A DNA stretch of 64,000 bases from Coriobacteriia bacterium. Its GTDB lineage: Bacteria > Actinomycetota > Coriobacteriia > Anaerosomatales > JAAXUF01. This document shows positions 33,263 to 54,709 of this stretch, in pieces. Position numbers and translations under genes: made by a program. The first letter of the stretch is position 1; each line of letters begins with the position of its first letter. The notes beneath the pieces were generated by a model, which saw only the letters and a list, made by a program, of their open reading frames with translations, searched no databases and was not told where the DNA came from. The DNA lies in the NCBI GenBank assembly GCA_013334745.1, contig JAAXWY010000002.1, forward strand, positions 35,421 through 99,420. The letters are read 5' to 3'.

Positions 33263-33405
33263 AGCCGGGTGATGGCGCCCCGAGGGGTGGGGCGTCCACC
33301 GCCAACCAGAGTCGCACTCGCGGCTTACCCAGTTCTTACTACCAAGCCAAAGAAGGCCGGTCTCCCGATGCGGAGGCTGGCTTTCGCTATTCCTGGAGGT
33401 ACCTC

Positions 33406-34222: not shown

Positions 34223-34325
34223 GCAGGTTCTATTCGTGTCAGTGACCCCGATCGCCTACATGGGTGGTCGGGGTCTTTGTCGTTTCGGCAGGGATGCCGG
34301 AACAGAGGAAAGGAGGTCGGTCCTG

Positions 34326-34736: not shown

Positions 34737-34764
34737 AAGGACGGCCGGACAGGGAGCTGTGGGG

Positions 34765-34983
34765 TCAGTCCTGATCCACTTCTCCGGTCGGCGGCATCAG
34801 CAGTTCGGTGATGTCGACCTCGAGAGCAGTTGCCAACTTCTGCAGCGTGAGGATCGTCGTGTTTCTGCGACCTTGCTCCGCTTGCGAGATGTAGGTGCGC
34901 TCCAGACCGGCGAGGTGGGCGAGCTTCTCCTGAGTCAGGGAACGCTCGTCCCGCAGCTCCCTGAGCCGTTTACCGAAGTCCAT
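34765..34983 (-). CDS. XRE-family helix-turn-helix transcriptional regulator
   Basis: FGKRLRELRDERSLTQEKLAHLAGLERTYISQAEQGRRNTTILTLQKLATAL is a canonical HTH_3 domain. An upstream ATG at 35007 is an alternative start. Confidence 0.8.
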   Translation of the reverse strand: MDFGKRLRELRDERSLTQEKLAHLAGLERTYISQAEQGRRNTTILTLQKLATALEVDITELLMPPTGEVDQD

Positions 34984-35153
34984 GAGCTCTGCCTTCTGTT
35001 CTCGCATGGAGCGAGCATTGAGGCACTCGGTTCAGGGGTCTACGGTTCACAGGCAACGTGGTACACAGGCAACATATACTGATGCAACATCATTTCGCGT
35101 TCGTGCTGGTGAGATGTGGCATCTGCAACATCGTTGCGACGAGGGGAAGCAAC

Positions 35154-35297
35154 GTGAAAGTTCTTCTCGGGACCCTGTTCATCGGCTTCGGGATCTTCTT
35201 GCTGTTCACGATCCCGCTATCGCCAATCAGCCTGCTGCCGGCGGTCTTCTGTATCGGCGGCGGCTTTCGAGTAATCACCGGGAGCGGGTCGCTTTAG
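35154..35297 (+). CDS. possible small two-helix membrane protein
   Basis: GTG start after a GAGGGGAAG RBS. 47 aa, mostly hydrophobic (LLGTLFIGFGIFLLFTIPLSPISLLPAVFCIGGGF). Divergent from the XRE gene. Confidence 0.3.
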   Translation: MKVLLGTLFIGFGIFLLFTIPLSPISLLPAVFCIGGGFRVITGSGSL

Positions 35298-35343
35298 GGC
35301 GGGTCGCTCCTCATCCCTTTCAGCTCTTGCGACAGGAGCGACT

Positions 35344-36384
35344 ATGGATCTCTACTGGATTGACGCTGAGTGTGGCCAGCCCGAGCGCAGAGTGCGTGTG
35401 GGCGGCGAGTGGATGGGCGCCTATTCTTCGCTTACGGAGGCACTAGATGCCTGCTTGAACTGGTGGCGTCCGATGCATGAGAGTCGGTTGGGATGGTTCC
35501 AGTTGCGTGAGCGACACGGTGGCGACGTCGCCCTCGTCTGCGACATCAGCCCAGCAAATCAAGCCGCCCGCTGCGTCGTGGACGAAGGCGGCAGTTTCCT
35601 GGACTCCGGTCTGAGATTTCGAGAGACGAAACAGAGGTTCTGGGTTGTCCAGTTCTCGGAGGCATGGGCCACGGCGAATCATGACCGCTTCACCGCCTGG
35701 CTTAGACAAGGCTCCCCGTTCCCGCACAACGAAATCGACTTTGAGCGCACAAGAGTCCGTGCAGCCGAAGCCGCGAAGGCATTGGCATCAAGCGTTGCCG
35801 ATCGCGACCAACGTATAGGCCAGGCGCTCGAGGCCTGGAGTAGCGCTGAGCCTGAGGACTCGGATGTGCTGTTCTGCGATGAGCTGCAACCATCGCTGAC
35901 CTTTGCGACGAGGTCGGCGACAAGGACCGGCGATTGGAGCGTTGACGCTGTCACGCTCTCCGACTGGCACCTCGTGATCACCACGGCATGGCTTGCACTT
36001 GAGGACATCGACGCCGATTCACCCGAGCTCCGCACGGATGTCCGAGCTGTCGGAGAAGCCCTGCTCTGCATGTTTGCGCTATCGGGCGATTCGGCTGCAG
36101 CAGCAAGAGCCGCGTGCTCACTGGAGGCGCTTTGCTCGCTCAAGTGGATGAATCCGCATGTGCGTGATTCCCTCAGTGCGATCTTGCCGCACTTGAAGGC
36201 CAGTGATCTTCCAGGATGCCGGCAGCACGCAATCGAAGCACTGGGCCACTCGATAGCGGTGAACGACTCCGGGGATTGGTTGTGGTGCAGCAACTGCGAA
36301 GGCGATTGGGAGGGTGGCGGCTGGCCAAAGTGGCCGCGATCCTGTCCACTTTGTGGCGTCAGCTTCTACGACCCACGGACATGA
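35344..36384 (+). CDS. hypothetical protein with C-terminal zinc-ribbon-like CxxC...CxxC
   Basis: 346-aa ORF ending in WCSNCEGDWEGGGWPKWPRSCPLCG. No other motif recognised. Confidence 0.6.
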   Translation: MDLYWIDAECGQPERRVRVGGEWMGAYSSLTEALDACLNWWRPMHESRLGWFQLRERHGGDVALVCDISPANQAARCVVDEGGSFLDSGLRFRETKQRFWVVQFSEAWATANHDRFTAWLRQGSPFPHNEIDFERTRVRAAEAAKALASSVADRDQRIGQALEAWSSAEPEDSDVLFCDELQPSLTFATRSATRTGDWSVDAVTLSDWHLVITTAWLALEDIDADSPELRTDVRAVGEALLCMFALSGDSAAAARAACSLEALCSLKWMNPHVRDSLSAILPHLKASDLPGCRQHAIEALGHSIAVNDSGDWLWCSNCEGDWEGGGWPKWPRSCPLCGVSFYDPRT

Positions 36385-36435
36385 AGCGGATTGCAGTCGG
36401 GGTGCAACCGTTCGCCCAACGAACAGGAAGGCCAA

Positions 36436-37107
36436 TCAGGCGGTGCCGCCGATGAACGGATCACTCATCGGGTCGAAAGGCGCATCACTCTCGCCGGCTG
36501 CATGCTGCTTGCCGAGCAGGTACATCTCGATGGCACGGAGCTTCCCGCCCGACAGATATTCTGCTCGTTTCCGCATCCGGTCGACTCCTGCTACCAACTC
36601 GTCTTCAAGTCGCCTCTGACGGCCTCTCAGGCGGTCTAGATACAGGTTCGCGAGGCGGCTCTCCCGCGTTGCTTTCGCCCACGAATCGCGTCCTTGCATC
36701 ATCAGCAGCATCGAGTGGTTCAGCCGAGTGATGCACCTCGTTCTCTGCAGATCGATGTTGAGCGCTTCGGTGGCGAGTGCATCGAAGTCCTCCACGTCCG
36801 GCCATATCTTGAGGGCGGCCCACGTCTCGTGGAACTGAGCCAGGAATCGGCGGCTGAACTCCTGTTCCCAAGGACAAGGATCGCCGACAGTTGTGGAAGG
36901 GTAGCCGGCATCGCAGTAGCGGTAGTGGCAGCGACCGGTCCCTGGGCATGGGATAGGCCCTTCGAGGTGCGTTGCGTAGTTGACACTGTTGAACCTGCTG
37001 AGGCCGTAGTTGCCGGCCGGTTCGTGTCCAGATCCGCTATTTCGCTCCGATACATTCAGTGTCCCCGCACACGGGGAGGTGTTGTCCTGATGTGTGGCTG
37101 CGCCCAT
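36436..37107 (-). CDS. hypothetical Cys-rich protein
   Basis: 223-aa ORF. It has the Cys cluster CPGTGRCHYRYCDAGYPSTTVGDPCPW followed by a helical C-terminal half. Confidence 0.5.
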   Translation of the reverse strand: MGAATHQDNTSPCAGTLNVSERNSGSGHEPAGNYGLSRFNSVNYATHLEGPIPCPGTGRCHYRYCDAGYPSTTVGDPCPWEQEFSRRFLAQFHETWAALKIWPDVEDFDALATEALNIDLQRTRCITRLNHSMLLMMQGRDSWAKATRESRLANLYLDRLRGRQRRLEDELVAGVDRMRKRAEYLSGGKLRAIEMYLLGKQHAAGESDAPFDPMSDPFIGGTA

Positions 37108-37356
37108 CGACCTACTCCTCGGCCGAGTCTTGATGGCACATCGTGCTGTAGCCCGGGCACGTCGGCGCTCTTCGACAACGTAGGTCGGTCGCCGAATCGC
37201 GACTCGGTTCGGAGGCTGAACCGTACGCCATCTCCACGATCTCGTCGGCGATCGCCAGAAGGAAGCTCCTTGGCTCGGACTCGGTGCTCGCGTTCTTGGT
37301 GCCGCACATTGGCTGCTCCCTTCGGTCGGCGGTCGGCCAGGCCATCTCCGACGCCT

Positions 37357-37539
37357 CTACTGCAGCACCGCCAATGCGAGTACGAGCAGGTTCAACGCGA
37401 TCAGGAATGCGATCAGCTCGATGGTCAGCCGAGCGGTCCTGTCGGCCATCTCGATTGCGAGCTCGAATCGTGCGTCGGCTTCTTCCATCGACTGTCGATG
37501 CGTGTCAGTCACGGAGTCTCCTTCACTTGGCGCCGTCAC
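37357..37539 (-). CDS. small tail-anchored membrane protein
   Basis: 60 aa with a C-terminal hydrophobic helix (LTIELIAFLIALNLLVLALAVL). The start abuts the stop of the Rep-like gene. Confidence 0.4.
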   Translation of the reverse strand: MTAPSEGDSVTDTHRQSMEEADARFELAIEMADRTARLTIELIAFLIALNLLVLALAVLQ

Positions 37540-38073
37540 CTAACGAGCACCGACCTGAGCCACAGACAGAGTGCGGTCAAGCACCGAAGTCCGCACCGAC
37601 GGATCTGAGGCCCGCGTCGCTACATAGAAGTAGGCGCCGGGATCGGCCGGGCCACCCTTCCAGATGCCATGCGCAGAACCCCACGCTTTGCCGATCGCTC
37701 CTATGTTCTCGTCCCAGTCGCAGATGGCGTGGACGTGGATGCCCCCGTCGTCGTGGTTCTGGTGCGCTGTGGCGAAGAAGTTGCCCGTGTATCCGGCATC
37801 TCGGATGCACTTCTCGAAGTCGTCGAGTACGACGTCGGCTGCGGCCTTCCCCTTTGGTGCTTTGCGATACGTACCGCTGAAGAAAAGAGCCGCCGGCATT
37901 CGGGCCATCAGATGATCCTCGGCCAATCGCACGATCCTCGTGTCGGTGATGAAGTAGCGGTCGGCGTCCACCCTGTCGGGGATCTCCTGCGACTCATACG
38001 GATACAGCCGCGATATCTCCCGGTGGCGTCGCTTGATCTCCGAGCGTCGAACCCTAGGTACTTGGTTACTCAT
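37540..38073 (-). CDS. small HUH-type endonuclease-like protein (candidate rolling-circle Rep/relaxase)
   Basis: The order of motifs resembles Rep motifs I-III: FFSGTY (motif I-like), GGIHVHAIC (HUH-like) and GAYFYVATR (Tyr motif-like). Confidence 0.5.
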   Translation of the reverse strand: MSNQVPRVRRSEIKRRHREISRLYPYESQEIPDRVDADRYFITDTRIVRLAEDHLMARMPAALFFSGTYRKAPKGKAAADVVLDDFEKCIRDAGYTGNFFATAHQNHDDGGIHVHAICDWDENIGAIGKAWGSAHGIWKGGPADPGAYFYVATRASDPSVRTSVLDRTLSVAQVGAR

Positions 38074-38452
38074 CTTCCTTCTTCAGCCTCTCCATCTTCC
38101 CGGTATCTCCCTCTGGACATACCTATCCATCAAGTCCGGGGTTCCGGGCTCTACCTAAGTAGTACGGCTTCGATCTGAAAAAGTGCACAACTCGCGAAGT
38201 ACCGAGCGTCCTCCGATGCGAGCGCTCGATCAGCCACGTGCTGTCTCTCGCGTAGGAGGAGCTCGACTGGATGCACGGCACGGTCGACTTCCACCGACGA
38301 CCCTGCAGGCGACCTCGCGTTCGTCGGGAAACGCCCGCCGCCGGGCTGTCCGCAGCGAATCCCGAGGCCGGCTCCGTGCCAGTATTTGGTCAGGTCTAGA
38401 ACGACCGATCGTCGAGAAGGCGGGTGAAATCCGCCGAGGAAGGATAGCCCGT

Positions 38453-39181
38453 ATGAGCAAGAGCAAGATCGCGTGGACCGAGTCCACGTGGAACCCAGTG
38501 ACCGGTTGCACCAAGACCAGCGCCGGCTGCAAGAACTGCTATGCGGAGCGTCTGGCAGTACGTCTTCGGGCCATGGGCCAGGACAAGTACGCGAACGGCT
38601 TTCAGGTCACCACTCACCCCGAGTGCCTTGATGAGCCTAGGGGGTGGATCAAGCGCCGTCTGGTGTTCGTCTGCAGCATGGCTGACCTCTTCCACGACGA
38701 CGTGCCGGACGAGTTCATCAAATCCGTGTTCGCCGTCATGGCGGAGACACCACAGCACACGTATCAGGTGCTCACCAGGCGCTCGGGTCGGCTAGCGTCG
38801 TTGGCGCCAGAGCTCACCTTCGCACCGAACATCTGGGTGGGCGTCACGGTCGAGAATAACGACTACGTGCACCGTGTGGATGATCTCCGGCAGGTGCCGG
38901 CAGCGGTCCGGTTCATCAGCGCAGAGCCGCTTCTCGGTCCGCTGACCGACCTCGACCTGACAGGCATCGACCAGGTCATCGTCGGCGGTGAGTCCGGCAA
39001 GGGCTGGCGTCCGATGGACCCAGACTGGACTCGTGACCTCCGCGACCGCTGTGTGGGCGAGGGCGTGAGCTTCTTCCTGAAACAGTTCGCCGGGTTTCGG
39101 CCCAGGAAGCTCGGTCGTGAGCTCGATGGCGTGATCTGGGACGAGATGCCGAAGCGGGCAGCCGATGAGGATGCCGCGTAA
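38453..39181 (+). CDS. DUF5131 / phage Gp37-Gp68 family protein
   Basis: SKIAWTESTWNPVTGCTKTSAGCKNCYAE, then FVCSMADLFH and ISAEPLLGP...VIVGGESG, are all characteristic of this family. The ATG at 38453 follows a GAGGAAGGA RBS. Confidence 0.85.
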   Translation: MSKSKIAWTESTWNPVTGCTKTSAGCKNCYAERLAVRLRAMGQDKYANGFQVTTHPECLDEPRGWIKRRLVFVCSMADLFHDDVPDEFIKSVFAVMAETPQHTYQVLTRRSGRLASLAPELTFAPNIWVGVTVENNDYVHRVDDLRQVPAAVRFISAEPLLGPLTDLDLTGIDQVIVGGESGKGWRPMDPDWTRDLRDRCVGEGVSFFLKQFAGFRPRKLGRELDGVIWDEMPKRAADEDAA

Positions 39182-39446
39182 ACCATGACGATCCAGCTGA
39201 CAGCCCGGTTCTCGTGGCCGGGATCTTCGACAGGACCCGAGAGGATGAACACAGAGCAACCTGGTCCAAGTTGGCGGGACACCGCAGGTCCCGAGCGCTA
39301 CCCAAAGCCGTAGGTCCTCCCCCTAACGCACCACCCGACTCACACGAGCCATTTCTGCATCATCCGGCTGGGAGGCCATCCCCTTAGTTGAGCGCCACAA
39401 CGGCGCAACTTCTCGGGGCAATCGCTCCGGTGAGGATGGCTTCGCT

Positions 39447-39668
39447 ATGCCTGAGAACATGAACATCACGCAGGATCCGCTCATGACCGTTGCCGAGTTG
39501 GCCCGCTTCCTCCGCAAGTCGGAGGCATGGGTGTATCGCAACTCCCGCTCGGGAGTGCTGCCGACCATCATGGTTGGCCGTTCCCGTCGCTTTTCCCGCC
39601 GGGCAATCACCGGATGGCTTTCGCGTCGCTCGAGCTCCCAGCTCCACGACGACATGCACAACAACTAG
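39447..39668 (+). CDS. xis: excisionase / AlpA-like helix-turn-helix DNA-binding protein
   Basis: LMTVAELARFLRKSEAWVYRNSRSGVLPTIMVGRSRRFSRRAITGWL matches the excisionase-type HTH_17 pattern. It lies immediately upstream of the integrase gene. Confidence 0.75.
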   Translation: MPENMNITQDPLMTVAELARFLRKSEAWVYRNSRSGVLPTIMVGRSRRFSRRAITGWLSRRSSSQLHDDMHNN

Positions 39669-39686
39669 AGAAAGGGCGGCATCGCC

Positions 39687-40877
39687 ATGCCTGTATACAA
39701 GTACGAGCTCGACAGCAAGCGATCGGGAGGCAAGCCTAGTGTGCGTTGGCAGGCCTACCGCTACGACAAGAACGCGGGCCGGAATCGCTACCTCGGAACC
39801 TTTGCCACCAAGGCCGCTGCGAATGAGGCCATCCGACAGGAGGAGGAGCGTATTCGTCTCGGACGGCCACTCGTTCGGCGAAGAGTGATCGGCTTCTCCG
39901 ACCTTGTAGACGAGTGGATGTCCGTGCACGTGTCGAACCTGAGGCCCAATACCATCAACGACTACGAGGCGGCCGCGAAGCGTATGCGCCACTACTTCAA
40001 GAATGTACCGGTGGACTCGGTTGAACGCCGTGATGTCGCCTTGTACGTGTCTTGGCTGTGCAAACAACCTCTAGGGGTGCATACCGTCCGCAAGTTCGCG
40101 ACGAGGCTAACCCAGGTGTTCAACTTCGCCATCGAGTTCGGATACATCGATGCTTCGCCGACTGCCAGCGGGATCAAGAACCTGCCCAAGCTGCCACGCA
40201 AGCGCATCCAGCCACTGACGCCGGCGGAGCTTCGCAGTCTGCTCGACGTATTTCCCGAGCTCTACAGACCCATGGCCCTGATCATGGCAACGGCAGGGCT
40301 CCGTCGTTCAGAGGCCTTCGGCCTCACGACTGACAGCATCGACCTTGAGCGTGGCGAGCTCCGCGTGACCCATCAGCTAGTGAACGGTCGCCTAGTGGAG
40401 CCGAAGACCGAGAACGCCGTAAGGGTCATACCGCTTGCGCCCAGCGTGGTGGAGGCGTTGCGTCGACACCTCGAGCACCGTCCCGCCAACGAGCTCGACC
40501 TGCTGTTCCCTACTGAATCCGGCACGCCGATCATGGCTAGCAACTTCGTTCGCAGGGTGTGGGCGCCAGCCGTCGAGGCATCTGGTATCGGGCGCCACAT
40601 CACGATGCACGACCTGAGACGTACGTACGGGTCGATGACGGCTAGGCACGGGCGGAGCGCAGCCTATCTGCAAGCGACCATGGGCCACAGCAACGCCCGA
40701 ACGAGCCTCACGTATTACGTAGGAATCTACGGCGACGAGCAGCAAGAGGCGGTGGCCGATGTGGAGAAGTGGCTGGGTTCGGAACCCGCCAACCGCCATC
40801 CTGTCGGCCAGTTCATTGCCCTCGAGTCTGCGCCGGACTACAGAAATACTGAAGAAGAGGCGCAGTCAGCTGCCTGA
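39687..40877 (+). CDS. int: tyrosine integrase of the island
   Basis: Arm- and core-binding N-terminal region. The catalytic residues are in GLRRSEAFGL, MHDLRRTYGS and MGHSNARTSLTYYVGIY. It ends 49 nt before the tRNA-Ala 3' end. Confidence 0.9.
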   Translation: MPVYKYELDSKRSGGKPSVRWQAYRYDKNAGRNRYLGTFATKAAANEAIRQEEERIRLGRPLVRRRVIGFSDLVDEWMSVHVSNLRPNTINDYEAAAKRMRHYFKNVPVDSVERRDVALYVSWLCKQPLGVHTVRKFATRLTQVFNFAIEFGYIDASPTASGIKNLPKLPRKRIQPLTPAELRSLLDVFPELYRPMALIMATAGLRRSEAFGLTTDSIDLERGELRVTHQLVNGRLVEPKTENAVRVIPLAPSVVEALRRHLEHRPANELDLLFPTESGTPIMASNFVRRVWAPAVEASGIGRHITMHDLRRTYGSMTARHGRSAAYLQATMGHSNARTSLTYYVGIYGDEQQEAVADVEKWLGSEPANRHPVGQFIALESAPDYRNTEEEAQSAA

Positions 40878-40885
40878 GAGACAAA

Positions 40886-40917
40886 CAGGCCAGGGAGCAA
40901 ACACACTCCCTGACCTG
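40886..40917. terminator. hairpin between the integrase stop and the tRNA-Ala 3' end
   Basis: CAGGCCAGGGAG-CAAACACA-CTCCCTGACCTG, with one mismatch. It is the structural counterpart of the hairpin at 22470-22500. Confidence 0.5.
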
Positions 40918-40973
40918 CATATTCTTTGGTGGAGACGAAGGGGCTCGAACCCTCGACCCTCGGCTTGCAAAGC
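40914..40973 (-). repeat. att-type direct repeat (proximal island boundary) overlapping the 3' part of intact tRNA-Ala
   Basis: 59/60 identical to 22497-22556. Confidence 0.85.
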
Positions 40974-41002
40974 CGATGCTCTCCCAGCTGAGCTACGTCC
41001 CC
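40927..41002 (-). tRNA. tRNA-Ala (anticodon UGC)
   Basis: The reverse complement folds as a cloverleaf. Parts: acceptor GGGGACG/CGTCTCC with G3:U70, D arm GCTC..GAGC, anticodon loop TTTGCAA, T arm with TTCGAGC, and an encoded CCA. Length 76 nt. Confidence 0.95.
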
Positions 41003-44504: not shown

Positions 44505-44535
44505 CCCTCACGCCTCACCATAGGCACAACGCAAA

Positions 44536-44564
44536 GGAGCGGGTCCCTTCCAGGGGCCCGCTCC
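44536..44564 (+). terminator. hairpin after glnK
   Basis: GGAGCGGGTCCC-TTCCA-GGGGCCCGCTCC, followed by TCGTGT. Confidence 0.6.
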
Positions 44565-44571
44565 TCGTGTA

Positions 44572-44839
44572 CCGGTGAGGCTCGTATCTGCAGCCTAGCC
44601 GGGAAACGTCTTGACCGGGATGGCCTTCGCACCGCCTGAAGCGCCCCTGTGTGGGCTACTCTCGGGGACCTCTTGGCCGATCCTACGTGCTCTTCGGCCT
44701 CATCCCCGGCGAATCAACGGCTTATGCCTGATCCCGCTTCGCGTCCGATCTCTACGGTCGCTTCCCCGGAACCTTCATCTGCCATCCCGGTCGTACTGCT
44801 CTGTGGTGCTTTCCGTCTGCAGTTTGACCTCCTGACCGG
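44572..44839. ncRNA. candidate structured RNA, unclassified (rod-like fold); strand undetermined
   Basis: Nested long-range pairings: 44572-80/44828-39, CTGCAG 44588-93/44817-22, 44600-06/44811-16 and a 12-bp helix 44613-24/44781-92. There are also internal hairpins, for example 44665-69/44703-07 enclosing 44675-80/44694-99. It lies between convergent genes and has no credible ORF. Confidence 0.3.
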
Positions 44840-44926
44840 ACGGGTGCGGACGCCGAGCAAAGCGTCCTCTCCTAGGAATATACGCCCGCTCGTTACGACT
44901 CACACCCCTATTGACCGTCGAAACGA

Positions 44927-44953
44927 CGAACGGCTCCGCATGGGAGCCGTTCG
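44927..44953 (-). terminator. hairpin downstream of the rhodanese-thioredoxin gene
   Basis: CGAACGGCTCC-GCATG-GGAGCCGTTCG, followed on the minus strand by TCGTTTCG. Confidence 0.55.
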
Positions 44954-44996: not shown

Positions 44997-45692
44997 CTAG
45001 TTCAGTGCCTCGATCGAGGTCTTCATGTTCTCCTGAGTCATCGCACCGACGATGTTCTTCGACACGATGCCGTTGGAGTTCGCGAACACGAAGGTGGGGA
45101 CGTACTGCACGCCCATCTTGTTCGCAAGTTCGATCGCGGCCTGATCGGTCTCGACGTTGAGCCTCCGGAACTCCACCTTATCGCTGTACTGCTTCTCTAG
45201 CCCCTCGACCAGGGGCTTCATCTCTGCGCAGGTGGGTCAAGAGTTGGTGTAGAACTCGATGAACACGGGCTTGCCAGCGGTCTCGATCGTCTGACTCGAG
45301 CTCTCTCCACCGGTCGTGAGCTCACCGGTGTAGGCCTGAATGCCCTCCGCGAAGTGGAGGATGTTGCCAAAGCCCATCGATGTCATCGTATTCACGGCAT
45401 CCGTGGACCTCGCACCCGTCGCGCAGTACACGACGTAGGTAGCGTTCTTGTCCCAGCTCGCGGCTGCGGTCTGCACCGTCTCGACCGGGACGTTCACCGC
45501 TCCGGGGATGTGACCGAGCTGATACTCGCCCGCCGAGCGCACATCGATGACCTGAGCGCCCTTGTCGACCGCGGCAGTCACGCCCGCGGAGTCGACGTTC
45601 TTCACACCGCCGCCGCTCGCAGGCTTAAACGCGAGGAACCCGATCCCCACGACCACGGCAGCGACGATTATCCACACAACAGACTTCTTCAA
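44997..45692 (-). CDS. membrane-anchored rhodanese-thioredoxin fusion protein with in-frame UGA (probable selenocysteine, UxxC redox motif)
   Basis: ORFs 45237..45755 and 44997..45221 share one frame and are separated only by the TGA at 45237-45239. Read-through gives ...GKPVFIEFYTNS-U-PTCAEMKPLVEGLEKQYSDKVEF...VPTFVF.., a thioredoxin fold with the stop at the first Cys position. The upstream half has a TM helix and the rhodanese active-site loop VVYCATGARS. The TTG start at 45692 is 8 nt after a GGAGGT RBS. Confidence 0.75.
45199..45217 (-). promoter_or_regulatory. candidate bacterial SECIS hairpin
   Basis: The mRNA reads AGCCCCU-GGUCG-AGGGGCU, a 7-bp perfect stem with a G/U-containing apical loop. 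It starts 19 nt after the UGA. Confidence 0.5.
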
Positions 45693-45865
45693 CCCGTAAC
45701 ACCTCCAGGGTGGCCAACACGCAATACTATACCCCACGGGGTATCCTGACCGCAACCTCCGACGCTCAAGTCGCAGGTCGGGGATAATCAGAGCAGCCCA
45801 TCCTCACTACCACTGAGCAAACCACCGACCAAGACGGTGTTTTCCGAGCACCGCAGGAAGCTCAC

Positions 45866-48800
45866 ATGCCCGACACCAGCGTCACATCGGCCAATCGCGT
45901 GACCAACGACAACGCGCCGCTGCGCGCGGAACTGCTCTCGGCCGAGCGGCTGATGGGTGAGGCTCGGGCCCTCGCCACCGAGCAGGACTCGACCACGGCC
46001 GGGCGCATCAAGGCCACGCCACTCATCACTCTGGCCGAAAGCGCGGCTTCATCCCTTTCAGCCGACAATCGGGAACTGTCCCTCGCCGCACGCGATCGGG
46101 GCGCCACCCCCCCGGCCGGCGAGTGGCTGCTCGACAACTACTACCTCATCGAAGAGCAGGTTCTGCTGGTTCGCGCGGACCTGCCGTCGCACTACGGCCT
46201 GGAACTCCCCCGTCTTGTCGGCGGACGGTTCGCCGACTTCCCGCGCATCTACGAGGCGGTCCTCTCACTAGTAGCGCATACCGACTCCCGCCTCGACGAG
46301 GAGTTTCTCACCGGTTTCGTCCATGGCTACCAAGAGGTCGCGCCGCTGACCATCGGCGAAGTGTGGGCGGTACCGATCATGCTGCGAATCGCACTCGTCG
46401 AGAACCTCTCTCGGCTTTCGCGCGCAGTCGTTGCGTCGCAGCGTGCCGAGATCGCTGCCGATGAGTGGGCCGAGCGTCTCGTGCTCACCGGGCAGGACGC
46501 TCCGGATGAGCTGGGCGCACTGCTCGGACAGCTCGACGCCGCGACTCGGAAGGTGGCGGCGCCGTTCTTCGTGCGGCTCTCACAGCGCCTCGGCGACCTC
46601 GAACACGGGGGCGACGCCATCAACGCATGGCTCGAGAGACGGCTCCTTGCCGAGGGGATCGTGCTGGAAGCCGCGTCGGCGCTCGCGCAGCAAGAGCAGG
46701 CCGCGAACCAGGTGTCGATCGCGAACTCCATCACCAGCATCCGGCTACTGGATGCGCTCGACTGGCGCGAGTTCTTCGAGAGCGTGTCGCTGGTCGAGGC
46801 CGCGCTGCGGCACGATCCGGCTCGCACGTACTCGGCGATGGACTTCGAAAGTCGCGACCGGTATCGACACGCCGTCGAGGAGATCGCTCGTCGCTCCGAA
46901 TACACCGAGCTGGGCGTCACCGAGGCCCTCATGGAGCTTTCCCGCGCCGCGCTTGCCGTCGACGCGTCTGACGGGCTGCGCGGTCACGTGGGCTGGTGGC
47001 TCGTAGACGACGGTCGCCTTGAGCTTGAATCCCAGGTTGGCTATCGCCCTCGCAAGCGCGAGCGGTTCTACCGCAATGCCCTGGTGCGGCAACACGGCCT
47101 CTTCTATTGGGGCAACATCATCGTCCTCACGGGCGTGCTGCTCGGGATGCTGACGCTCTACGCCCGAAGTGAGGGTGCGGCGACGTGGCAGGTGGTGGTG
47201 CTTGCCGTGCTCGGGGTGGTGCCGTCGGTCGAGATCGCGCTCGTCGTGGTCAATCGGCTCGCGTCGTTGGTGTTCCCCCCGAAGCGTCTGGCGAAGTTGG
47301 ACTTCCGTAAGCCGGTCGACGAGTCGCATCGCACGCTCGTGGTGGTGCCCGCGTTGTTGTCCTCGGTCGGCTCGACGCGCGAGGTCATCGGGCATCTTGA
47401 GATCACGTACCTGTCGAATCGCGACGAGAACCTTGGATTCGCGCTGCTCGGCGACGTGCGGGCGCACTCCGAAGAGGTTCGCGACGACGATGCCGAGATA
47501 CTTGACGCCGCTCGCAGCGAGATCGAGGCGCTCAATGAGCGCTACGCCGCCGAGCACGGCGTCCGCCCGTTCCACCTGCTCGTGCGCGCGCGGCGCTACA
47601 ACGCATCCGAGGGTAGCTGGATGGGCTGGGAGCGAAAGCGCGGGGCCCTGCTCGAACTCGTGCGCGACCTGCGCGGCCGACCGGACGTCTCGTTCTCGGT
47701 GCGCCTCGGCGACGCCGCATTCCGGCGCTCGTGCGCGTTCGTATTGACGCTCGACGCCGACACGGTGCTGCCGCGCGACGGCGGCAGGCGGCTTGTCTCG
47801 GCGATCGCACACCCGCTCAACCGCGCGCGCTGGCGCCCGGGCGACCCACACGTGCGTGAGGGCTACGGGCTCGTGCAGCCGCGCGTGGGGATGACGCTCG
47901 AGGGCGCTCACCGCAGCCGCTTCGCAACGCTCTACAGCGGCCCGACCGGCATCGACCCGTACGCGGGTGCCGTCTCCGACACGTATCAGGACGTGTTTGG
48001 CGAGGGCTCGTTCACCGGCAAGGGCATCTTCGAGGTCGACGTGTTCGAGGGTGTGCTTGAGGGCAGGTTCGAGGAGAACTCGCTGCTCTCCCACGACCTC
48101 GTCGAGGGCTCGTTCCTGCGCACCGCGCTCGCGAGCGACATCGAGGTACTCGACGACTACCCCGCGAACTACCTCGCAGCCGCCTCGCGACTGCATCGTT
48201 GGGTGCGCGGCGACTGGCAGACGATTCCGTGGTTGCTCGGCAAGGTGAAGGATGCGCACGGTGCACGGGTCCACAACCCGCTGACCCGGCTGCACCGCTG
48301 GAAGATCACCGACAACCTGCGCCGCTCACTGTTCGCGCCGGCAATGCTCGTGCTCGCGGTCGCTGGCTGGTGGCTGCTGCCCGAGGCGAGTCTCTCGTGG
48401 CCGCTCATCGTCGCGGCGGTGCTGCTGTTCCCCGCGTACTTCTCGCTGGCCGACTCGATGATCTTCCGGCCCAAGTCGGTCGGGTTCGTGACGACGGCTC
48501 CCTCGGTGCTGCGCGACTTCGCGACCGACACGTGGCGCGCAGTGCTGACCGTCGCCGCACTTCCGTACCAGGCATGGCTCATGCTCGACGCGATCGTGCG
48601 CGCGCTCTGGCGCATGGGCGTGAGCCACAAGTTGTTGCTCGAGTGGGAGACGGCGGCCGATGCCGAGAAGCGCGCCGGGCGCACGAAGTCGGCGTTCTTC
48701 CGAGCGATGGGACCCGCCAACGCTGCAGCGGCGCTCGTCCTCGCCAGCGGTGTGGCCGCACCGATGTTGGCCGTCGCGGACAAGGGCCACGCAGTGCTGA

Positions 48801-51800
48801 TCGCGTGGGAGCGGGCGGGGCTTGCAATCCCGTTCCTCGCCGCATGGCTTGGCGGTCCGCTGCTGACCTGGTGGCTTTCTCAGCCCGAGATCGACGCGTC
48901 CCCGGAGGCGCTTCCCGATGGTGGCCGTGGGGCACTGCGGCGCATCGCCCGCAAGACGTGGCGGTTCTTCGACACCTTCGTCGTCGATCGCGGTCACTCG
49001 CTCGCGCCCGACAACTATCAGGAGGACCCGGGCGGCGTGGTCGCCTGGCGCACCTCGCCGACGAACATCGGCCTGCAGCTGCTCTCCTTCGTCAACGCCC
49101 ACGACCTGGGATACGTGACAATCGCCGAGCTTGAGTCGCGCGTTGCATCCACGCTCGCGGCGATGGCCGGACTCGAGCGCTATCGCGGGCACTTCTATAA
49201 CTGGTACGACATCGAGACCCTCGCGCCCCTTCGCCCGACCTACATCAGCACGGTCGACTCCGGCAACCTCGCGGGGCATCTTCTCGTGCTTCGCGTGGCG
49301 TTGCTCGAGGCCACAGAGGCTCCGTTGCTCGGGCCGCAGGTCATCGACGGCGCGCGCGATGCGGTGCTGCTCGCGCTTGAGGACCTCGTCGCCGAGCAGG
49401 CCGAGCTGCCCTCCACTCTCGATGCGCACCGCCTGCGCGAGGCGCTCGACTCTCTGTTGCGCACACTCGACGTCGCCGAGCCACCCGGCGACCTCTCCGA
49501 GTGGTGGGCGCTCCTCGAGCGTCTCGGCTCTCTCGCCGACGGCGTCGCCGCAGCGCTTGGCCCGATACAGCCGCCACTGCTCGCCGACGGCGAGCCGCAC
49601 GTCCCCGCGACGCCTGTCGAGCGCCTCGCCGCGTCCGTCGGCGATGCGCTCGACGCAGTGCGCGCCCCGCGCACACTGCTCGGCGCGTACGCGCCGTGGG
49701 CGCCGCTCCTCGCGAGCGCACCGGAGTCGCTGCGCAGCGAGCCGGCGCTCGAGCCGCTTGCGGCGCGAGTGCCCAGCCTGGCCGGGCTCGCCGAGGGACT
49801 CGACGGCGCGCTTGCGGCCCTCGATGTAGCTGCCGGCGCGCCAGCGCCCGATGTGGCCGAGTGGGCCGCGAGCGTCGCGGCAGGGATTCGCGAGGCCCGG
49901 CCAGTCGCCGGCGAGCTGCTCGCGCGGATGCGGCTGTCGACGGAGATCGCGCGCGAGATGTGGGAACACACGGACTTCGGGATGCTCTACGACCCGCATC
50001 GGCAGCTGTTCTCGATCGGCTTCAACCTCAACGAAGGCCGCCTCGATGCAAGCTACTACGACCTGCTTGCGAGCGAATGCCGACTCGCGAGCTTCCTCGC
50101 GATCGCGAAGGGCGACGTGAGTCAGGAGCACTGGTTCCGTCTCGGCAGGTCGCTCACGAAGGTGCGCGGAGGTCGCGCGCTCGTCTCATGGAGCGCATCG
50201 ATGTTCGAATACCTGATGCCGTTGCTCGTGATGCGCGATTGGCCGCAGACGCTGCTATCCGAGACCTACGACACCGTTGTCGCCGCGCAGATCGCGTACG
50301 GTGACGCGCGTGGCGTGCCGTGGGGGGTCAGCGAGTCGGCGTTCAACGCCAAGGACGCCGAGCTCACCTACCAGTACCAGGCGTTCGGCGTGCCCGGACT
50401 TGGCCTGAAGCGAGGCCTTTCAGATGACGTCGTCGTCGCACCGTACGCGTCGATCATCGCGCTGCCCATCGATCCTTCGAGCGTCATCGCGAACTTGAGC
50501 GCGTTCTCCTCGGAGGGCGCCGAGGGCCGATTCGGCTACTACGAGGCGCTCGACTACACGCCGGGCCGCGTTCCCGCCGGTCAGCGCCGCGCGGTGGTCG
50601 CGAGCTACTTCGCGCACCATCAGGGCATGGCGTTCCTCGCGCTGGGCAACGCGCTGTGCGGCGGCAGGATGCGCGACCGCTTCCACGAGGATCCCGTGGT
50701 CGGCTCGGCCGAGCTGCTGCTGCAGGAGCGCGTGCCGCGCCACATCGAGCTCGTCACCCCGCATGCCGAGGAGGTCGAGAACCTGCGCTCGGTCCGAGAC
50801 CTGCCGCCTCCGGTAGCGCGCACGTACACGACCGCCGACACGATGGTGCCCGCGACGCACTTCCTTTCCAACGGCCGCTACTCGGTCATGGTCACCAACG
50901 GCGGTGGCGGCTACTCGCGCTGGAACGGCGTCGCCGTCACCCGCTACCGTGAAGACGTCACTCGCGACTGCTGGGGCACCTTCTTCTACGTACGCGACGT
51001 CGAGAGCGGCGAGGTCTTCTCGGCACCGCACAACCCGCACCCCACACGGCCAAAGCGCTACAGCTGCGTGTTCTCGCCCGACAAGGCCGAGTTCAGCCGC
51101 CACGACGGCGACCTGGAGACGCACGTCGAAGTGTCGGTCTCTCCCGAGGACGACGTCGAGGTCCGACGACTGACGATCACCAATCACGGCCTCTCCGAGC
51201 GCACGCTGGAAGTCACCAGCTACTTCGAGATCGCGCTTGCGCTGCAAGGGTCCGACCAGGCGCACAAGTCGTTCAGCAACCTCTTTGTGGAGACCGACTG
51301 GCTGCCCGAGACCAACGCCGTGCTCTTCACCCGTCGCCCACGCAGCGCCCACGAGCAGCGGTTCTGGGGCCTTCACGTGCTCGCCTGCGAGCAGGGCTCG
51401 GAGTGCACCGTCACCTACGAGACCGACCGCGCCGCATTCCTCGGCCGCCTCCACGGCGCCGATTCACCGGTTGCAGTCACGCGCGGAGGCGACCTTTCGT
51501 GCGGCAGCGGCTCGGTGCTCGACCCGTGCTGCGCGCTGCGCCGCCCGGTCACCGTTCCAGCCGGCGAGAGCGTGCGGCTGACCTTCGCGACGGGGGTCGC
51601 GGACTCGCGTGAGATCGCGCTGCGCCTCACCGAGAAGTACGCCGATCCGCGTGGCGCTCAGCGAGCCATCGACCTCGCGTGGACGGCCGCCCAACTCGAA
51701 CTGCGCGATCTCGGCATCAGCCCGCAAGAGGCGGTCACGCTCGAGCGCCTCGGCTCGCGACTTCTGCTCACCGACCCGTATTCGCCGCTCAAGATCAAGA

Positions 51801-54709
51801 CACCGGTCGAGAACGGGCTGCAGATGTCGGGACTGTGGTCGATCGGCATCAGTGGAGACCTGCCGATCCTCCTCGTACGCGTGGAAGAGATCGAGCACGC
51901 TCCCCTCGTGCGACAGGCGATCCTCGCCCACCAGTACTGGCGGCACAAGGGACTCGTCGCCGACCTCGTGGTGCTCAACACCCGGCCCACCGGCTACTCG
52001 GACGAACTCGACGACCGGCTGCGCGTGCTCGTGCGCACCGGCCATGCGCTGCAGCTTCTCGACAAGCCCGGCGGCGTCTACCTGCGGCGCATCGACCAGA
52101 TGCACCCGGACGTCGCGAACCTGCTCGCATCGGTGGCGCGCGCGACACTCGAAGGCGAAGGCGGCTCCATCGAGCTGCAGCTCAACCGCCGCGGAACTGC
52201 GCGGCCAGCCCCTGGCGCGCTGCGCTCGGTCCCGCGTAGCGGCAAGGATGGCGTGGCCGACGCCACGTCGGCAACCGACTTCGCGCGGCCCGCGCTCGAC
52301 TTCGACAATGGCATCGGCGGCTTCGACCCCGCGACCGGCGACTACGTGATCGTGCTCGAAGGCGACGACGTGACGCCGGCTCCGTGGATCGACGTGCTCG
52401 CCTCCCCTGGGTTCGGCTGCATGGTGAGCGAGGCCGGCGTGGGCTGCACGTGGGCTCTCAACAGCCACGAGAACCGCATCACCACGTGGAACAACGATCC
52501 GGTGAGCGACGGTTCGGGCGAGGCGATCTACATCCGCGATGAGGAGACCGGCGAGTTCTGGAGTCCCACCCCACTTCCCGTCAGAACCCCCGAGCCCTAC
52601 GTGGTGCGTCACGGCAAAGGTCGCGTGCGCTTCGAGCATGAGACGCACGGCATCGCCCACGAGCTCGACTGGTTCGTGCCCGCCGAGGACCCGGTGCGCG
52701 TCTGCCGGCTGCGCCTGACCAACACCGGCGACCGTGCGCGGCAGCTCTCGGCGACGCAGTTCGTTGAGTGGGTGCTCGGCGACTCGCGTTCGCGCGCACA
52801 GCAGCTCGCGGTGACGTGGTTCGATGCCGAGACCGACATCCTCACCGCGCACAACCACTTCAACCTCGACTTCCCCGGCCGCTGCGGCTTCCTCGCGACC
52901 GATCGGCCGTTGGCTGACTGGACGGCGAGCCGTGGAGAGTTCGTGGGCCGTAACGGTCGGCCGAGCGACCCGGCTGCGATGCACCGCGAGGGGCTCGGCG
53001 AAGTGTCGGGGCGCTATCACGACACCTGCGGCGCGCTCCGCTGCCTCATCGACCTCGAGCCGGGACAGACCCGCGAGGTCAGCTTCCTGCTCGGCCAGGC
53101 GGCGACGCTCGACGAAGCGCGCACGCTCGTCGCACGCTACCGCGCTCCCGGTGCGATCGAGGGCGCCCTGGACGACGCGCTCGCGTTCTGGCGCGACCTG
53201 CTCGGCACCGTACAGGTATCGACGCCCGACCCCAAGCTCGACCTGTTGGTCAACGGCCAGCTGCTCTACCAGGCGACCGCGTGTCGGCTCTGGGGCCGCA
53301 CCGCCACCTACCAGAGCAGCGGCGCGTACGGCTTCCGCGACCAGTTGCAGGACTCGATGGCGCTCCTGCTCGCACGGCCGGAGCTCGTGCGCGAGCAGAT
53401 CGTCGAGGCGAGCCGTCACCAGTTCCCCGAGGGTGACGTGTTGCACTGGTGGCAGCCGTTCTCGGGCCGAGGCGTGCGCACGCACATCTCCGATGACCGG
53501 CACTGGCTGCCGCTCGTGGTCGCCGAGTACCTCGCGGCCACCGGCGATCACTCCGTACTCGACGAGCGGACCGCCTTCCTCGACGCGCCCCTTCTGGCGC
53601 CGGAGGCCGAGGACGCCTACGTCCAGCCCCAAGCGAGCGAGCAGGCTGCGAGCGTCTACGAGCACTGCCTCGCCGCCATCGAGACCGGCCGGCGCGTCGG
53701 GCACCACGGGCTGCCGCTTATCGGCGGAGGCGACTGGAACGACGGCATGAACCGCGTCGGACACGGCGGCGCGGGCGAGAGCGTGTGGCTCGCGTGGTTC
53801 ATCGGCTACGTGATCAGCCGCTTCGCTCCCATCTGCGAGCAGCGCGGCGACACCGATCTGGCGACCGACTACCGCGAGTGGGCGACGCGACTCGCTGCGG
53901 CGGCCGAAGAGTCATGGGATGGCGCGTGGTATCGCCGCGCGTACTTCGACGACGGCTCGGCGCTGGGCACCCATACCGACGACGAGTGCCGCATCGACGC
54001 CATCGCGCAGGCCTGGGCGACGATCAGCGGACTCGGGGACGCCGACCGCGCTGCCGCGGCGCTCGACAGCGTCGAGGAGAAGCTCATCCGCCGAGAAGAC
54101 GGGCTGATCGCCCTGCTCGCACCGCCGTTCGATACCACCGAGCGCGACCCCGGCTACATCAAGGGCTACCTGCCGGGGGTGCGCGAGAACGGCGGGCAGT
54201 ACACGCACGCAGCGCTCTGGGTGGTGCTGGCGTATCTGATGCGGGGTGACGGCGACGAGGCGCACTCCCTGCTGCAACTCATCAATCCGATCGAGCACGC
54301 GCTGACGCGCGAGGCCGCCGAGCACTACGTCGTCGAGCCGTACGTGGTCGCCGCCGATGTCTACGGCGCCCCTCCACACACCGGCCGTGGCGGCTGGAGC
54401 TGGTACACGGGCTCGGCGAGCTGGTTCTATCGGGTCGCACTCAACTCGCTGCTTGGAATCCGCGTCGAAGCGCAGAACGGCGAGCGCTATCTGGCCATCG
54501 ACCCGTGCATCCCCAAGCGCTGGCCGGGATTCACGGCTGCTGTACGTGAAGGCTCGACGCTGTACCGGGTGTCCGTCGAGAATCCGCGCGGCGTGAACCG
54601 GGGAGTCGAGCGCGTCACAGTGGACGGGACACCGGCCGAGGGCGGACGCTGCCGGCTCGTCGACGACGGCGGCGTGCACGAGGTCACGGTGACTCTGCTC
54701 GGCGGCTAA
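45866..54709 (+). CDS. cgs: cyclic beta-1,2-glucan synthase (GT84 glycosyltransferase plus GH94 phosphorylase-like domains)
   Basis: 2947 aa. TM segments flank a GT domain (VLTLDADTVLPRDGGRRLV, QPRVG). The C-terminal GH94-type region (RDQLQDS, GGGDWNDGMN, ENGGQYTHAALW) matches the Cgs/NdvB/ChvB layout. Confidence 0.9.
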   Translation: MPDTSVTSANRVTNDNAPLRAELLSAERLMGEARALATEQDSTTAGRIKATPLITLAESAASSLSADNRELSLAARDRGATPPAGEWLLDNYYLIEEQVLLVRADLPSHYGLELPRLVGGRFADFPRIYEAVLSLVAHTDSRLDEEFLTGFVHGYQEVAPLTIGEVWAVPIMLRIALVENLSRLSRAVVASQRAEIAADEWAERLVLTGQDAPDELGALLGQLDAATRKVAAPFFVRLSQRLGDLEHGGDAINAWLERRLLAEGIVLEAASALAQQEQAANQVSIANSITSIRLLDALDWREFFESVSLVEAALRHDPARTYSAMDFESRDRYRHAVEEIARRSEYTELGVTEALMELSRAALAVDASDGLRGHVGWWLVDDGRLELESQVGYRPRKRERFYRNALVRQHGLFYWGNIIVLTGVLLGMLTLYARSEGAATWQVVVLAVLGVVPSVEIALVVVNRLASLVFPPKRLAKLDFRKPVDESHRTLVVVPALLSSVGSTREVIGHLEITYLSNRDENLGFALLGDVRAHSEEVRDDDAEILDAARSEIEALNERYAAEHGVRPFHLLVRARRYNASEGSWMGWERKRGALLELVRDLRGRPDVSFSVRLGDAAFRRSCAFVLTLDADTVLPRDGGRRLVSAIAHPLNRARWRPGDPHVREGYGLVQPRVGMTLEGAHRSRFATLYSGPTGIDPYAGAVSDTYQDVFGEGSFTGKGIFEVDVFEGVLEGRFEENSLLSHDLVEGSFLRTALASDIEVLDDYPANYLAAASRLHRWVRGDWQTIPWLLGKVKDAHGARVHNPLTRLHRWKITDNLRRSLFAPAMLVLAVAGWWLLPEASLSWPLIVAAVLLFPAYFSLADSMIFRPKSVGFVTTAPSVLRDFATDTWRAVLTVAALPYQAWLMLDAIVRALWRMGVSHKLLLEWETAADAEKRAGRTKSAFFRAMGPANAAAALVLASGVAAPMLAVADKGHAVLIAWERAGLAIPFLAAWLGGPLLTWWLSQPEIDASPEALPDGGRGALRRIARKTWRFFDTFVVDRGHSLAPDNYQEDPGGVVAWRTSPTNIGLQLLSFVNAHDLGYVTIAELESRVASTLAAMAGLERYRGHFYNWYDIETLAPLRPTYISTVDSGNLAGHLLVLRVALLEATEAPLLGPQVIDGARDAVLLALEDLVAEQAELPSTLDAHRLREALDSLLRTLDVAEPPGDLSEWWALLERLGSLADGVAAALGPIQPPLLADGEPHVPATPVERLAASVGDALDAVRAPRTLLGAYAPWAPLLASAPESLRSEPALEPLAARVPSLAGLAEGLDGALAALDVAAGAPAPDVAEWAASVAAGIREARPVAGELLARMRLSTEIAREMWEHTDFGMLYDPHRQLFSIGFNLNEGRLDASYYDLLASECRLASFLAIAKGDVSQEHWFRLGRSLTKVRGGRALVSWSASMFEYLMPLLVMRDWPQTLLSETYDTVVAAQIAYGDARGVPWGVSESAFNAKDAELTYQYQAFGVPGLGLKRGLSDDVVVAPYASIIALPIDPSSVIANLSAFSSEGAEGRFGYYEALDYTPGRVPAGQRRAVVASYFAHHQGMAFLALGNALCGGRMRDRFHEDPVVGSAELLLQERVPRHIELVTPHAEEVENLRSVRDLPPPVARTYTTADTMVPATHFLSNGRYSVMVTNGGGGYSRWNGVAVTRYREDVTRDCWGTFFYVRDVESGEVFSAPHNPHPTRPKRYSCVFSPDKAEFSRHDGDLETHVEVSVSPEDDVEVRRLTITNHGLSERTLEVTSYFEIALALQGSDQAHKSFSNLFVETDWLPETNAVLFTRRPRSAHEQRFWGLHVLACEQGSECTVTYETDRAAFLGRLHGADSPVAVTRGGDLSCGSGSVLDPCCALRRPVTVPAGESVRLTFATGVADSREIALRLTEKYADPRGAQRAIDLAWTAAQLELRDLGISPQEAVTLERLGSRLLLTDPYSPLKIKTPVENGLQMSGLWSIGISGDLPILLVRVEEIEHAPLVRQAILAHQYWRHKGLVADLVVLNTRPTGYSDELDDRLRVLVRTGHALQLLDKPGGVYLRRIDQMHPDVANLLASVARATLEGEGGSIELQLNRRGTARPAPGALRSVPRSGKDGVADATSATDFARPALDFDNGIGGFDPATGDYVIVLEGDDVTPAPWIDVLASPGFGCMVSEAGVGCTWALNSHENRITTWNNDPVSDGSGEAIYIRDEETGEFWSPTPLPVRTPEPYVVRHGKGRVRFEHETHGIAHELDWFVPAEDPVRVCRLRLTNTGDRARQLSATQFVEWVLGDSRSRAQQLAVTWFDAETDILTAHNHFNLDFPGRCGFLATDRPLADWTASRGEFVGRNGRPSDPAAMHREGLGEVSGRYHDTCGALRCLIDLEPGQTREVSFLLGQAATLDEARTLVARYRAPGAIEGALDDALAFWRDLLGTVQVSTPDPKLDLLVNGQLLYQATACRLWGRTATYQSSGAYGFRDQLQDSMALLLARPELVREQIVEASRHQFPEGDVLHWWQPFSGRGVRTHISDDRHWLPLVVAEYLAATGDHSVLDERTAFLDAPLLAPEAEDAYVQPQASEQAASVYEHCLAAIETGRRVGHHGLPLIGGGDWNDGMNRVGHGGAGESVWLAWFIGYVISRFAPICEQRGDTDLATDYREWATRLAAAAEESWDGAWYRRAYFDDGSALGTHTDDECRIDAIAQAWATISGLGDADRAAAALDSVEEKLIRREDGLIALLAPPFDTTERDPGYIKGYLPGVRENGGQYTHAALWVVLAYLMRGDGDEAHSLLQLINPIEHALTREAAEHYVVEPYVVAADVYGAPPHTGRGGWSWYTGSASWFYRVALNSLLGIRVEAQNGERYLAIDPCIPKRWPGFTAAVREGSTLYRVSVENPRGVNRGVERVTVDGTPAEGGRCRLVDDGGVHEVTVTLLGG

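Follow-up and report, generated by a model that had tools for sequence, protein, structure and literature searches.

A probable selenocysteine codon within a membrane-anchored rhodanese-thioredoxin fusion of uncultured Coriobacteriia-like Actinomycetota

We studied a 64,000-nucleotide stretch of the genome of a Coriobacteriia bacterium (contig JAAXWY010000002.1, positions 35,421 to 99,420; called the window hereafter), in which a TGA interrupts a minus-strand gene and raises the question of whether this codon ends a protein or encodes selenocysteine (Sec, U) within a longer one. As read from the sequence, the frame is open from a TTG at 45692 to a TAG at 44999-44997, and its sole interruption is the TGA at 45239-45237. 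Translation agreed with the initial annotation, which had described two same-frame open reading frames (ORFs) split by this single TGA: the minus-strand ORFs 45237..45755 and 44997..45221 are two halves of one frame. The read-through product has 231 amino acids (aa) and contains ...KPVFIEFYTNS-[TGA]-PTCAEMKPLVEGLEKQYSDKVEF...GVQYVPTFVF. The evidence presented below, which comes from sequence comparison, indicates that the TGA is very probably a Sec codon in a single functional gene, and marks neither the border between two proteins nor a pseudogene.

The complete coding sequence (44997..45692, 231 aa plus TAG; all features of the gene lie in the minus strand) matched the Pfam rhodanese and thioredoxin models when translated over the whole read-through. 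The putative start TTG (45692-45690) lies 9 nt downstream of a Shine-Dalgarno-like GGAGG read from the sequence (45702..45706), and a database copy of the protein, P0001, begins with the same MKKSVVW as the window gene. After MKK follows a hydrophobic segment (aa 4-22, 45627..45683), a candidate signal-anchor or signal peptide, and then the rhodanese domain (aa 42-122, 45327..45569; PF00581, 63.6 bits versus a cut-off of 22.2, E 2.5e-17), whose catalytic Cys90 (TGC, 45423..45425) opens the six-residue active-site loop in C-A-T-G-A-R-S. A Gly/Ser linker joins it to a thioredoxin-fold domain (aa 133-228, 45009..45296) that spans the TGA; with Cys put at the stop, PF00085 scored 56 bits (cut-off 23.5, E 4.5e-15) and Thioredoxin_2 (PF13098) 45 bits. 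The TGA (45237..45239) would encode U152, the first residue of a U-P-T-C redox motif, followed by the resolving Cys155 (TGC, 45228..45230) and by the cis-proline P199 (45096..45098) in the motif V-P-T-F, which aligns with I-P-T of thioredoxins. When the product was aligned with thioredoxin 2ynx_A (E 7e-13), the TGA coincided with the first Cys of WCGPC, and V-P-T matched the cis-proline loop. The only in-frame TGA of the gene is in the thioredoxin domain, and the rhodanese active site keeps its Cys (TGC 45425-45423). The hydrophobic N-terminal helix, the PF00581 match and the PF00085 match across the TGA bore out the earlier description of a membrane anchor and a CATGARS rhodanese upstream, and of a thioredoxin that on read-through has the stop at its N-terminal catalytic Cys.

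Structural comparisons gave the same layout. The rhodanese part matched the PDB sequences 3tp9, 6mxv and PspE (2jtq), and its structural matches were the single-domain rhodaneses 3iwh and 3gk5. An AlphaFold model of P0002, an orthologue with Cys at the position of the TGA (see below), reached a predicted local distance difference test (pLDDT) score of 93.4 with an alignment; a single-sequence AlphaFold run had given a poor 51.8. In this model an N-terminal helix (3-22) precedes the rhodanese (30-120), the linker (121-143) and a thioredoxin fold whose first strand (144-149) is encoded 5' of the TGA position and whose active-site helix (154-170) is encoded just 3' of it. Foldseek superimposed the thioredoxin domain of the model on TrxA structures with a root-mean-square deviation of 1.1-1.5 Å, and found no solved chain spanning both the rhodanese and the thioredoxin domains. 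The MKK-hydrophobic N-terminus, together with lipoprotein or cleavable signals in related forms, suggests that both domains are located outside the cytoplasmic membrane.

If the TGA were a true stop, the locus would consist of a 151-aa anchored rhodanese and a separate 74-aa thioredoxin fragment starting from the ATG at 45221, or would be the remnant of a decaying pseudogene. In its favour, gene callers split the locus like this in each public copy examined, all orthologues share the Met at 45221-45219, and UGA serves as an ordinary stop in other window genes. The conservation of the locus speaks otherwise. With one genome scanned per species, a full-length orthologue turned up in 23 genomes (24 with the window), all of them from uncultured Actinomycetota and mostly labelled Coriobacteria. 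TGA was present at the same codon in 23/23 of these orthologues; the frame after it comprised 79-80 intact codons, with no frameshift or stop, in every genome, and the gene terminator was TAG or TAA, never TGA, in the 23 orthologues and the window gene. The median pairwise ratio of nonsynonymous to synonymous substitution rates (dN/dS) was 0.33 downstream of the TGA versus 0.30 upstream, in the rhodanese part, so that the frame after the TGA is under purifying selection equal to that of the upstream frame. Residues Y89, C90, A91, G93, R95, S96, Cys155, V198, P199 and F201 were invariant in 22 aligned full-length sequences, Cys155 among them although it lies 3' of the supposed stop. The motif was U-P-[TSA]-C across the orthologues, mostly with Ser or Thr before U. 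The five codons between the TGA and the ATG show conservation at the protein level (P-[TSA]-C-x-x), with an invariant Cys codon, and the 74-aa fragment would be deprived of the first strand and the entire redox motif of the thioredoxin fold. Since the codons are intact, the dN/dS values match, and the second Cys and the cis-proline are invariant, we conclude that the downstream region is translated in this frame. Frameshifts or stops in relatives, which the initial annotation had named as signs of decay, were absent from all 24 genomes, which show no decay of the gene.

Fourteen of 45 likely window genes end in TGA at sensible lengths, and because about one third of these genes stop at this codon, UGA is not reassigned in this genome. 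As a separate observation, the 45 genes, which were chosen heuristically, use TAG 26 times, TGA 14 times and TAA 5 times in a genome of 64.5% GC; TGA is usually the commonest stop at such a GC content, whereas TAG dominates in the window.

Alternatively, the TGA could be a sequencing or assembly error for TGC or TGT in the window, given that TGA and TGC differ by one base and that the source is a metagenome assembly. Against this, the same TGA occurs in the 23 other species-level genomes, which come from different projects and sequencing platforms, and a separate Logan assembly of run SRR11449211 was 100% identical over 3,940 bp, TGA included. In a protein search, the best 120 database homologues had 58-100% identity to the window protein, and 119 of them were around 150 aa long and ended exactly at the TGA codon in ...EF[YF]Txx; the single exception, P0002, continues past the codon, with Cys there. 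Because the TGA recurs in the 23 genomes, in the 119 clusters that imply it and in the separate assembly, an error can be regarded as excluded for practical purposes, and the same data (24 genomes, more than 100 metagenomic clusters and the SRR11449211 assembly) dispose of the doubt that the initial annotation had voiced on this point. We also noted that one metagenome-assembled genome carries two near-identical copies of the locus, both with TGA (L010 and L011, on contigs CAVYQS010000003.1 and CAVYQS010000016.1), which reflect a duplication of the locus or else the binning of two strains into one genome.

In bacteria the selenocysteine insertion sequence (SECIS) is the structure bound by SelB to deliver Sec-tRNA(Sec). 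Exactly 19 nt past the UGA, the window sequence AGCCCCU-GGUCG-AGGGGCU (45199..45217) folds into a hairpin with its 5' arm at 45217-45211, the loop GGUCG at 45210-45206 and the 3' arm at 45205-45199, and the 7-bp stem is present in both the minimum free energy (MFE) and the centroid folds. RNAalifold, applied unaided to 23 orthologous segments, predicted just this stem. Paired cells made up 98.1% of the hairpin alignment, versus 26-60% when the partner was slid by one to three columns. Two pairs showed compensatory changes, with zero broken cells: pair 34-42 was CG in nine sequences, GC in eight and UA in six, and pair 33-43 was CG in 16, UA in six and UG in one. Loop positions 2-3 were invariably GU. 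One C-G to U-A switch exchanges CUG(Leu)/GAG(Glu) for UUG(Leu)/GAA(Glu), in a ratio of 9 to 6 with no discordant case; since it is synonymous on both arms and perfectly coupled, protein constraint cannot explain it. Other switches in the stem alter the protein, either from Leu/Glu to Val/Asp or by pairing a silent Pro change with a change of Gly to Arg. On a rough neighbour-joining tree built without the hairpin-encoded residues, changes of the hairpin state fall in several distinct lineages, with L014 as a U·G intermediate.

The published bacterial SECIS (bSECIS) model asks for a loop of 3-9 nt with G in its first two positions, an upper stem of 4-16 bp, a distance of 16-37 nt from the UGA to the loop and an MFE of -7.5 kcal/mol or lower (PMC13188914). 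The hairpin fell within all of these limits: its loop has 5 nt (N-G-U-N-N, with a GG or NG start), its stem 7 bp, the distance from the UGA to the loop is 26 nt, and the MFE ranged from -8.1 to -12.8 kcal/mol across the 23 sequences. The stem, spacing and G/U-containing loop given in the initial annotation were therefore correct for positions 45217-45199, and the comparison with a bSECIS model that it had recommended yielded a hairpin that both fits and covaries. Relatives do not conserve an extension of the stem at its base (CUGC...GCAG in the window), and this extension was left out of consideration for that reason. Rfam searches of the locus, at a permissive threshold, and of the whole window gave the tRNA-Ala and chance matches only, with no match to a bacterial SECIS family seen.

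A natural control is provided by P0002, the one close orthologue with Cys, which is syntenic (it has the same neighbours) and was recovered from three samples. At the codon it carries TGC, within one continuous ORF; two stem pairs of its hairpin are broken, and the MFE is -3.8 kcal/mol. Since P0002 nests inside the Sec clade in the neighbour-joining tree, we interpret it as a lineage in which Sec reverted to Cys and the hairpin then decayed. A true stop at the TGA accords poorly with this orthologue being continuous and with the hairpin being lost only where the TGA is lost; in view also of the intact frame, we consider that explanation highly improbable.

More distant exported fusions with Cys share the signal or anchor, rhodanese, linker and CxxC thioredoxin of the window protein. 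Two of them, P0131 and P0270, have lipoprotein signals (L-x-x-G-C) and WCPGC, and two others, P0241 and P0262, have cleavable signal peptides and WCKPC or WCAPC. A further one, from Flaviaesturariibacter sp. (L039:3731-4600), is a secreted rhodanese-thioredoxin fusion whose thioredoxin keeps WCGPC, while the catalytic Cys has been lost from its rhodanese (VLVYDETDQTT). Unlike the window protein, these forms carry Cys for Sec, do not require a SECIS hairpin, and are either rare or remote (33-45% identical to P0002). An exhaustive representative search returned mostly multi-rhodanese proteins and added just three distant full-length Cys forms. The Cys at this position in P0002, P0131 and P0270 supplies the Cys/Sec alternation that the initial annotation had expected among orthologues. 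Genes next to the Cys forms were functionally uninformative (GH94 and P-II at P0002; heliorhodopsin and BipA at P0270).

A third explanation accepts the read-through and denies the Sec: the UGA would be decoded by a suppressor or by a near-cognate tRNA for Trp or Cys, and the hairpin would be a mere ribosome pause or read-through stimulator. The nucleotide after the UGA is C in 22/23 aligned sequences, UGA-C being the leakiest stop context in E. coli, and the Sec machinery was not seen in the loci at hand (see below). On the other side, the codon is placed exactly at the redox-active Cys, a typical site of Sec/Cys exchange, where Trp as a nucleophile would kill the motif; the hairpin fits the SelB-type SECIS model in its loop (invariant GU), size and spacing; and the Cys form has given up the hairpin. 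Such non-Sec decoding is, in our judgement, very unlikely.

Several observations weigh against the Sec reading or the function attached to it. Neither the 64-kb window nor the fetched loci contained selA, selB, selD or tRNA-Sec (ARAGORN on the window and 25 related loci; Pfam on 30 window ORFs), and the same Pfam scans of the window ORFs detected no electron donor of the CcdA/DsbD type. The flanking genes give no hint of sulfur or redox metabolism. The window hairpin taken alone does not differ significantly from shuffled sequences (z = -1.55), so the support for it comes from the comparison between genomes. In that comparison, sequences that covary cannot be counted as independent events, the number of which is uncertain on the rough neighbour-joining tree. 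Among the window and related loci, the TGA at 45239-45237 was the only in-frame TGA with a coding signal on both sides, and literature searches on selenocysteine or rhodanese in OPB41 or Coriobacteriia yielded no usable information about the Sec machinery of this clade. Nevertheless, all 24 species-level genomes have jointly kept the UGA, the hairpin and the downstream frame, from which we infer that the Sec machinery is present in these genomes. The same joint conservation supports the interpretation of the initial annotation, a 231-aa selenoprotein. Its expectation of split gene calls was also borne out, as public collections hold a 'rhodanese-like' protein of about 150 aa and a separate thioredoxin ORF of 70-74 aa.

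Among prokaryotic selenoproteins, the UxxC thioredoxin-fold class is the commonest, and the window protein has several counterparts in it. It resembles the Sec thioredoxins of PF00085 in the classic fold, in having Sec first and Cys fourth in the motif and in a UGA with a downstream hairpin, and differs from them in that the thioredoxin is the C-terminal domain of a membrane-anchored rhodanese fusion. In the published list, the Sec thioredoxins (PF00085, UxxC), e.g. WP_010956703.1, are entered with just the thioredoxin domain, and no fusion is mentioned (PMC13188914). The classic thioredoxins with which it aligns have C-G-P-C preceded by Trp, whereas the window family has U-P-[TSA]-C, mostly with Ser or Thr before U. 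The score against the TrxA equivalog TIGR01068 was 56.1 bits, below the cut-off of 96.8; the C-terminal part is accordingly a thioredoxin-fold domain and not a TrxA orthologue. Thiol:disulfide interchange proteins (PF13098, UxxC) and DsbA-like and DsbG-like selenoproteins are likewise predicted UxxC selenoproteins of the thioredoxin fold; none is listed there with a rhodanese domain, and the best matches of the window protein were of TrxA type, not Dsb or TlpA.

Selenoproteins with a rhodanese domain are also on record (forms 1-5, including the rhodanese/DsbD fusion-like TsoB, NF045694), the Sec motifs of all five being assigned to rhodanese or TsoB models, and TsoB, like the window protein, is fused to a thiol-redox module. 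In forms 1-4, however, the Sec motifs (UxxS, UxxG and CxU) are filed under the rhodanese model, while the Sec of the window protein would belong to the thioredoxin domain. The window protein scored 39 bits against TsoB (cut-off 805) in the rhodanese part only, and the TsoB motif is UxxxxU versus UxxC. The E. coli proteins PspE (periplasmic) and GlpE (cytoplasmic) are single-domain rhodaneses with one catalytic Cys, as is the rhodanese part of the window protein, and PspE has the extracytoplasmic location that is predicted for it; their thiol acceptor is a separate molecule, whereas here a seleno-thioredoxin would be fused in cis. Scores against the PspE equivalogs (42.4 versus 102 and 40.6 versus 126.3 bits) and GlpE (32.1 versus 102 bits) were below the cut-offs; JGI labels several family members 'phage shock protein E'. 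No NCBIfam model reached its cut-off for the 231-aa product, which accounts for the NCBI name 'rhodanese-like domain-containing protein'. Supplementary lists of large surveys aside, the 2026 prokaryotic selenoprotein inventory does not include a fusion of rhodanese and thioredoxin in which the thioredoxin part carries the Sec. The fusion is a further architecture within the known class of UxxC thioredoxin-fold selenoproteins, and not a new principle.

What the fusion might do can be proposed from its parts. The N-terminal signal-anchor would put both domains outside the cytoplasmic membrane, where a PspE-like single-Cys rhodanese (Cys90), a flexible linker and a TrxA-like thioredoxin domain with U152-P-T-C155 would cooperate. 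Cys90 would be converted to a persulfide by a sulfane sulfur donor such as thiosulfate or polysulfide; the U152 selenolate would attack this persulfide, or an over-oxidised form of Cys90, with sulfide leaving; Cys155 would resolve the intermediate, leaving a selenenylsulfide with U152; and a membrane electron donor would re-reduce the U152/Cys155 pair. The reaction has a precedent, as a rhodanese persulfide and a dithiol acceptor give sulfide and oxidised dithiol, and PspE carries it out in the E. coli periplasm (PMC2593051). We put forward this specific sulfur chemistry of rhodanese and seleno-thioredoxin tentatively, as a plausible assignment that may well prove wrong.

The same selenoprotein could have another job: the seleno-thioredoxin may protect or repair the exposed rhodanese Cys against sulfenylation, or the pair may handle selenium as a perselenide carrier. 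DsbC and DsbG rescue sulfenylated single-Cys periplasmic proteins, and a rhodanese can carry selenium as perselenide. The single exposed Cys of the rhodanese and the predicted location of both domains outside the membrane would suit such a role, and PspE itself sits in an oxidising compartment, where modifications of its Cys may affect its stability (PMC2593051). The Flaviaesturariibacter fusion mentioned above, which has the same architecture, argues against repair: it is devoid of the rhodanese Cys yet keeps WCGPC, and since that Cys is lost, its thioredoxin part must act on a target other than its own rhodanese Cys. We regard a repair or selenium-handling role as possible and somewhat unlikely.

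Returning to the Sec fusion as such, an anchored 151-aa rhodanese ending at the UGA is expected as a by-product of its synthesis, because Sec insertion always falls short of full efficiency. The Sec codon lies right at the boundary behind a complete rhodanese domain, which led us to consider the gene as a selenium-dependent switch between two products: with selenium the fusion would be made, and without it, or upon failed recoding, a functional stand-alone anchored rhodanese. If this were true, the sulfur chemistry of the cell surface would vary with the selenium supply, and the near-exclusive use of Sec in the clade (24/24 genomes and 119/120 clusters) would fit selection for the switch, beyond catalytic rate alone. 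We think such a switch unlikely.

Read as one selenoprotein, the gene has been misannotated, as a truncated rhodanese and an orphan ORF of 70-74 aa, across 23 species-level genomes and more than 100 metagenomic clusters of uncultured Coriobacteriia-like Actinomycetota, and its recognition would correct those records. It would also add a domain architecture to the 2026 inventory and imply Sec decoding in little-known lineages of soil, groundwater and sediment. The hairpin offers a natural example of RNA pairing that forces amino acids to change in concert (Leu/Val together with Glu/Asp, and Gly/Arg together with a silent Pro change), and a rhodanese placed in cis with a seleno-thioredoxin at the cell surface would be a ready system for studying the resolution of persulfides by a selenolate.

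The gene is flanked by a GH94 glucan enzyme, a convergent amt-glnB pair, a Na+/H+ exchanger and a tRNA-Ala, and this synteny is conserved across the clade. An 11-bp GC-rich hairpin at 44927..44953, 44 nt past the stop codon and with the minus-strand continuation TCGTTTCG, is the likely terminator common to the selenoprotein gene and the convergent amt-glnB. Between the end of glnB (44504) and this terminator, the roughly 420 bp at 44505-44926 contained no convincing ORF, and Rfam at a permissive threshold gave no credible match in the part of this gap from 44800. On the other side, the plus-strand gene at 45866-54709 encodes a divergent 2,947-aa protein of GH94/glycoamylase type (similar to cyclic or linear beta-glucan phosphorylases/synthases) and is transcribed away from the selenoprotein gene; the pairing of the two is kept in the relatives L002 and L085.

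A probable integrated mobile element occupies 22700-41002, adjoining the tRNA-Ala (40927-41002). It contains two integrases, at 39687-40877, directly abutting the tRNA-Ala, and at 32354-33262; a C5 cytosine methylase with a SacI-type restriction enzyme (28664-30856); a HerA/TrwB-like ATPase (25759-27942); a DUF5131 protein (38183-39181); and a 936-aa ORF unmatched in Pfam (22741-25551). The GC content at third codon positions was 0.65-0.75 in the element versus 0.80-0.89 elsewhere. Since L002 too carries an integrase at the tRNA-Ala, this site looks like an insertion hot spot. Elsewhere in the window, a minus-strand ORF of the NAD-binding ferredoxin-reductase type (3473-4222) overlaps by 46 nt a plus-strand ORF with a molybdopterin-oxidoreductase domain (4177-5001), and the starts of these ORFs may be miscalled. 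Three HD_5-domain proteins, which we take to be HD-GYP-like, are encoded in the 64 kb (1514-2830, 19896-22016 and 60521-63142); two of them have PAS or GAF sensor domains, suggesting a heavy investment in cyclic-nucleotide signalling.

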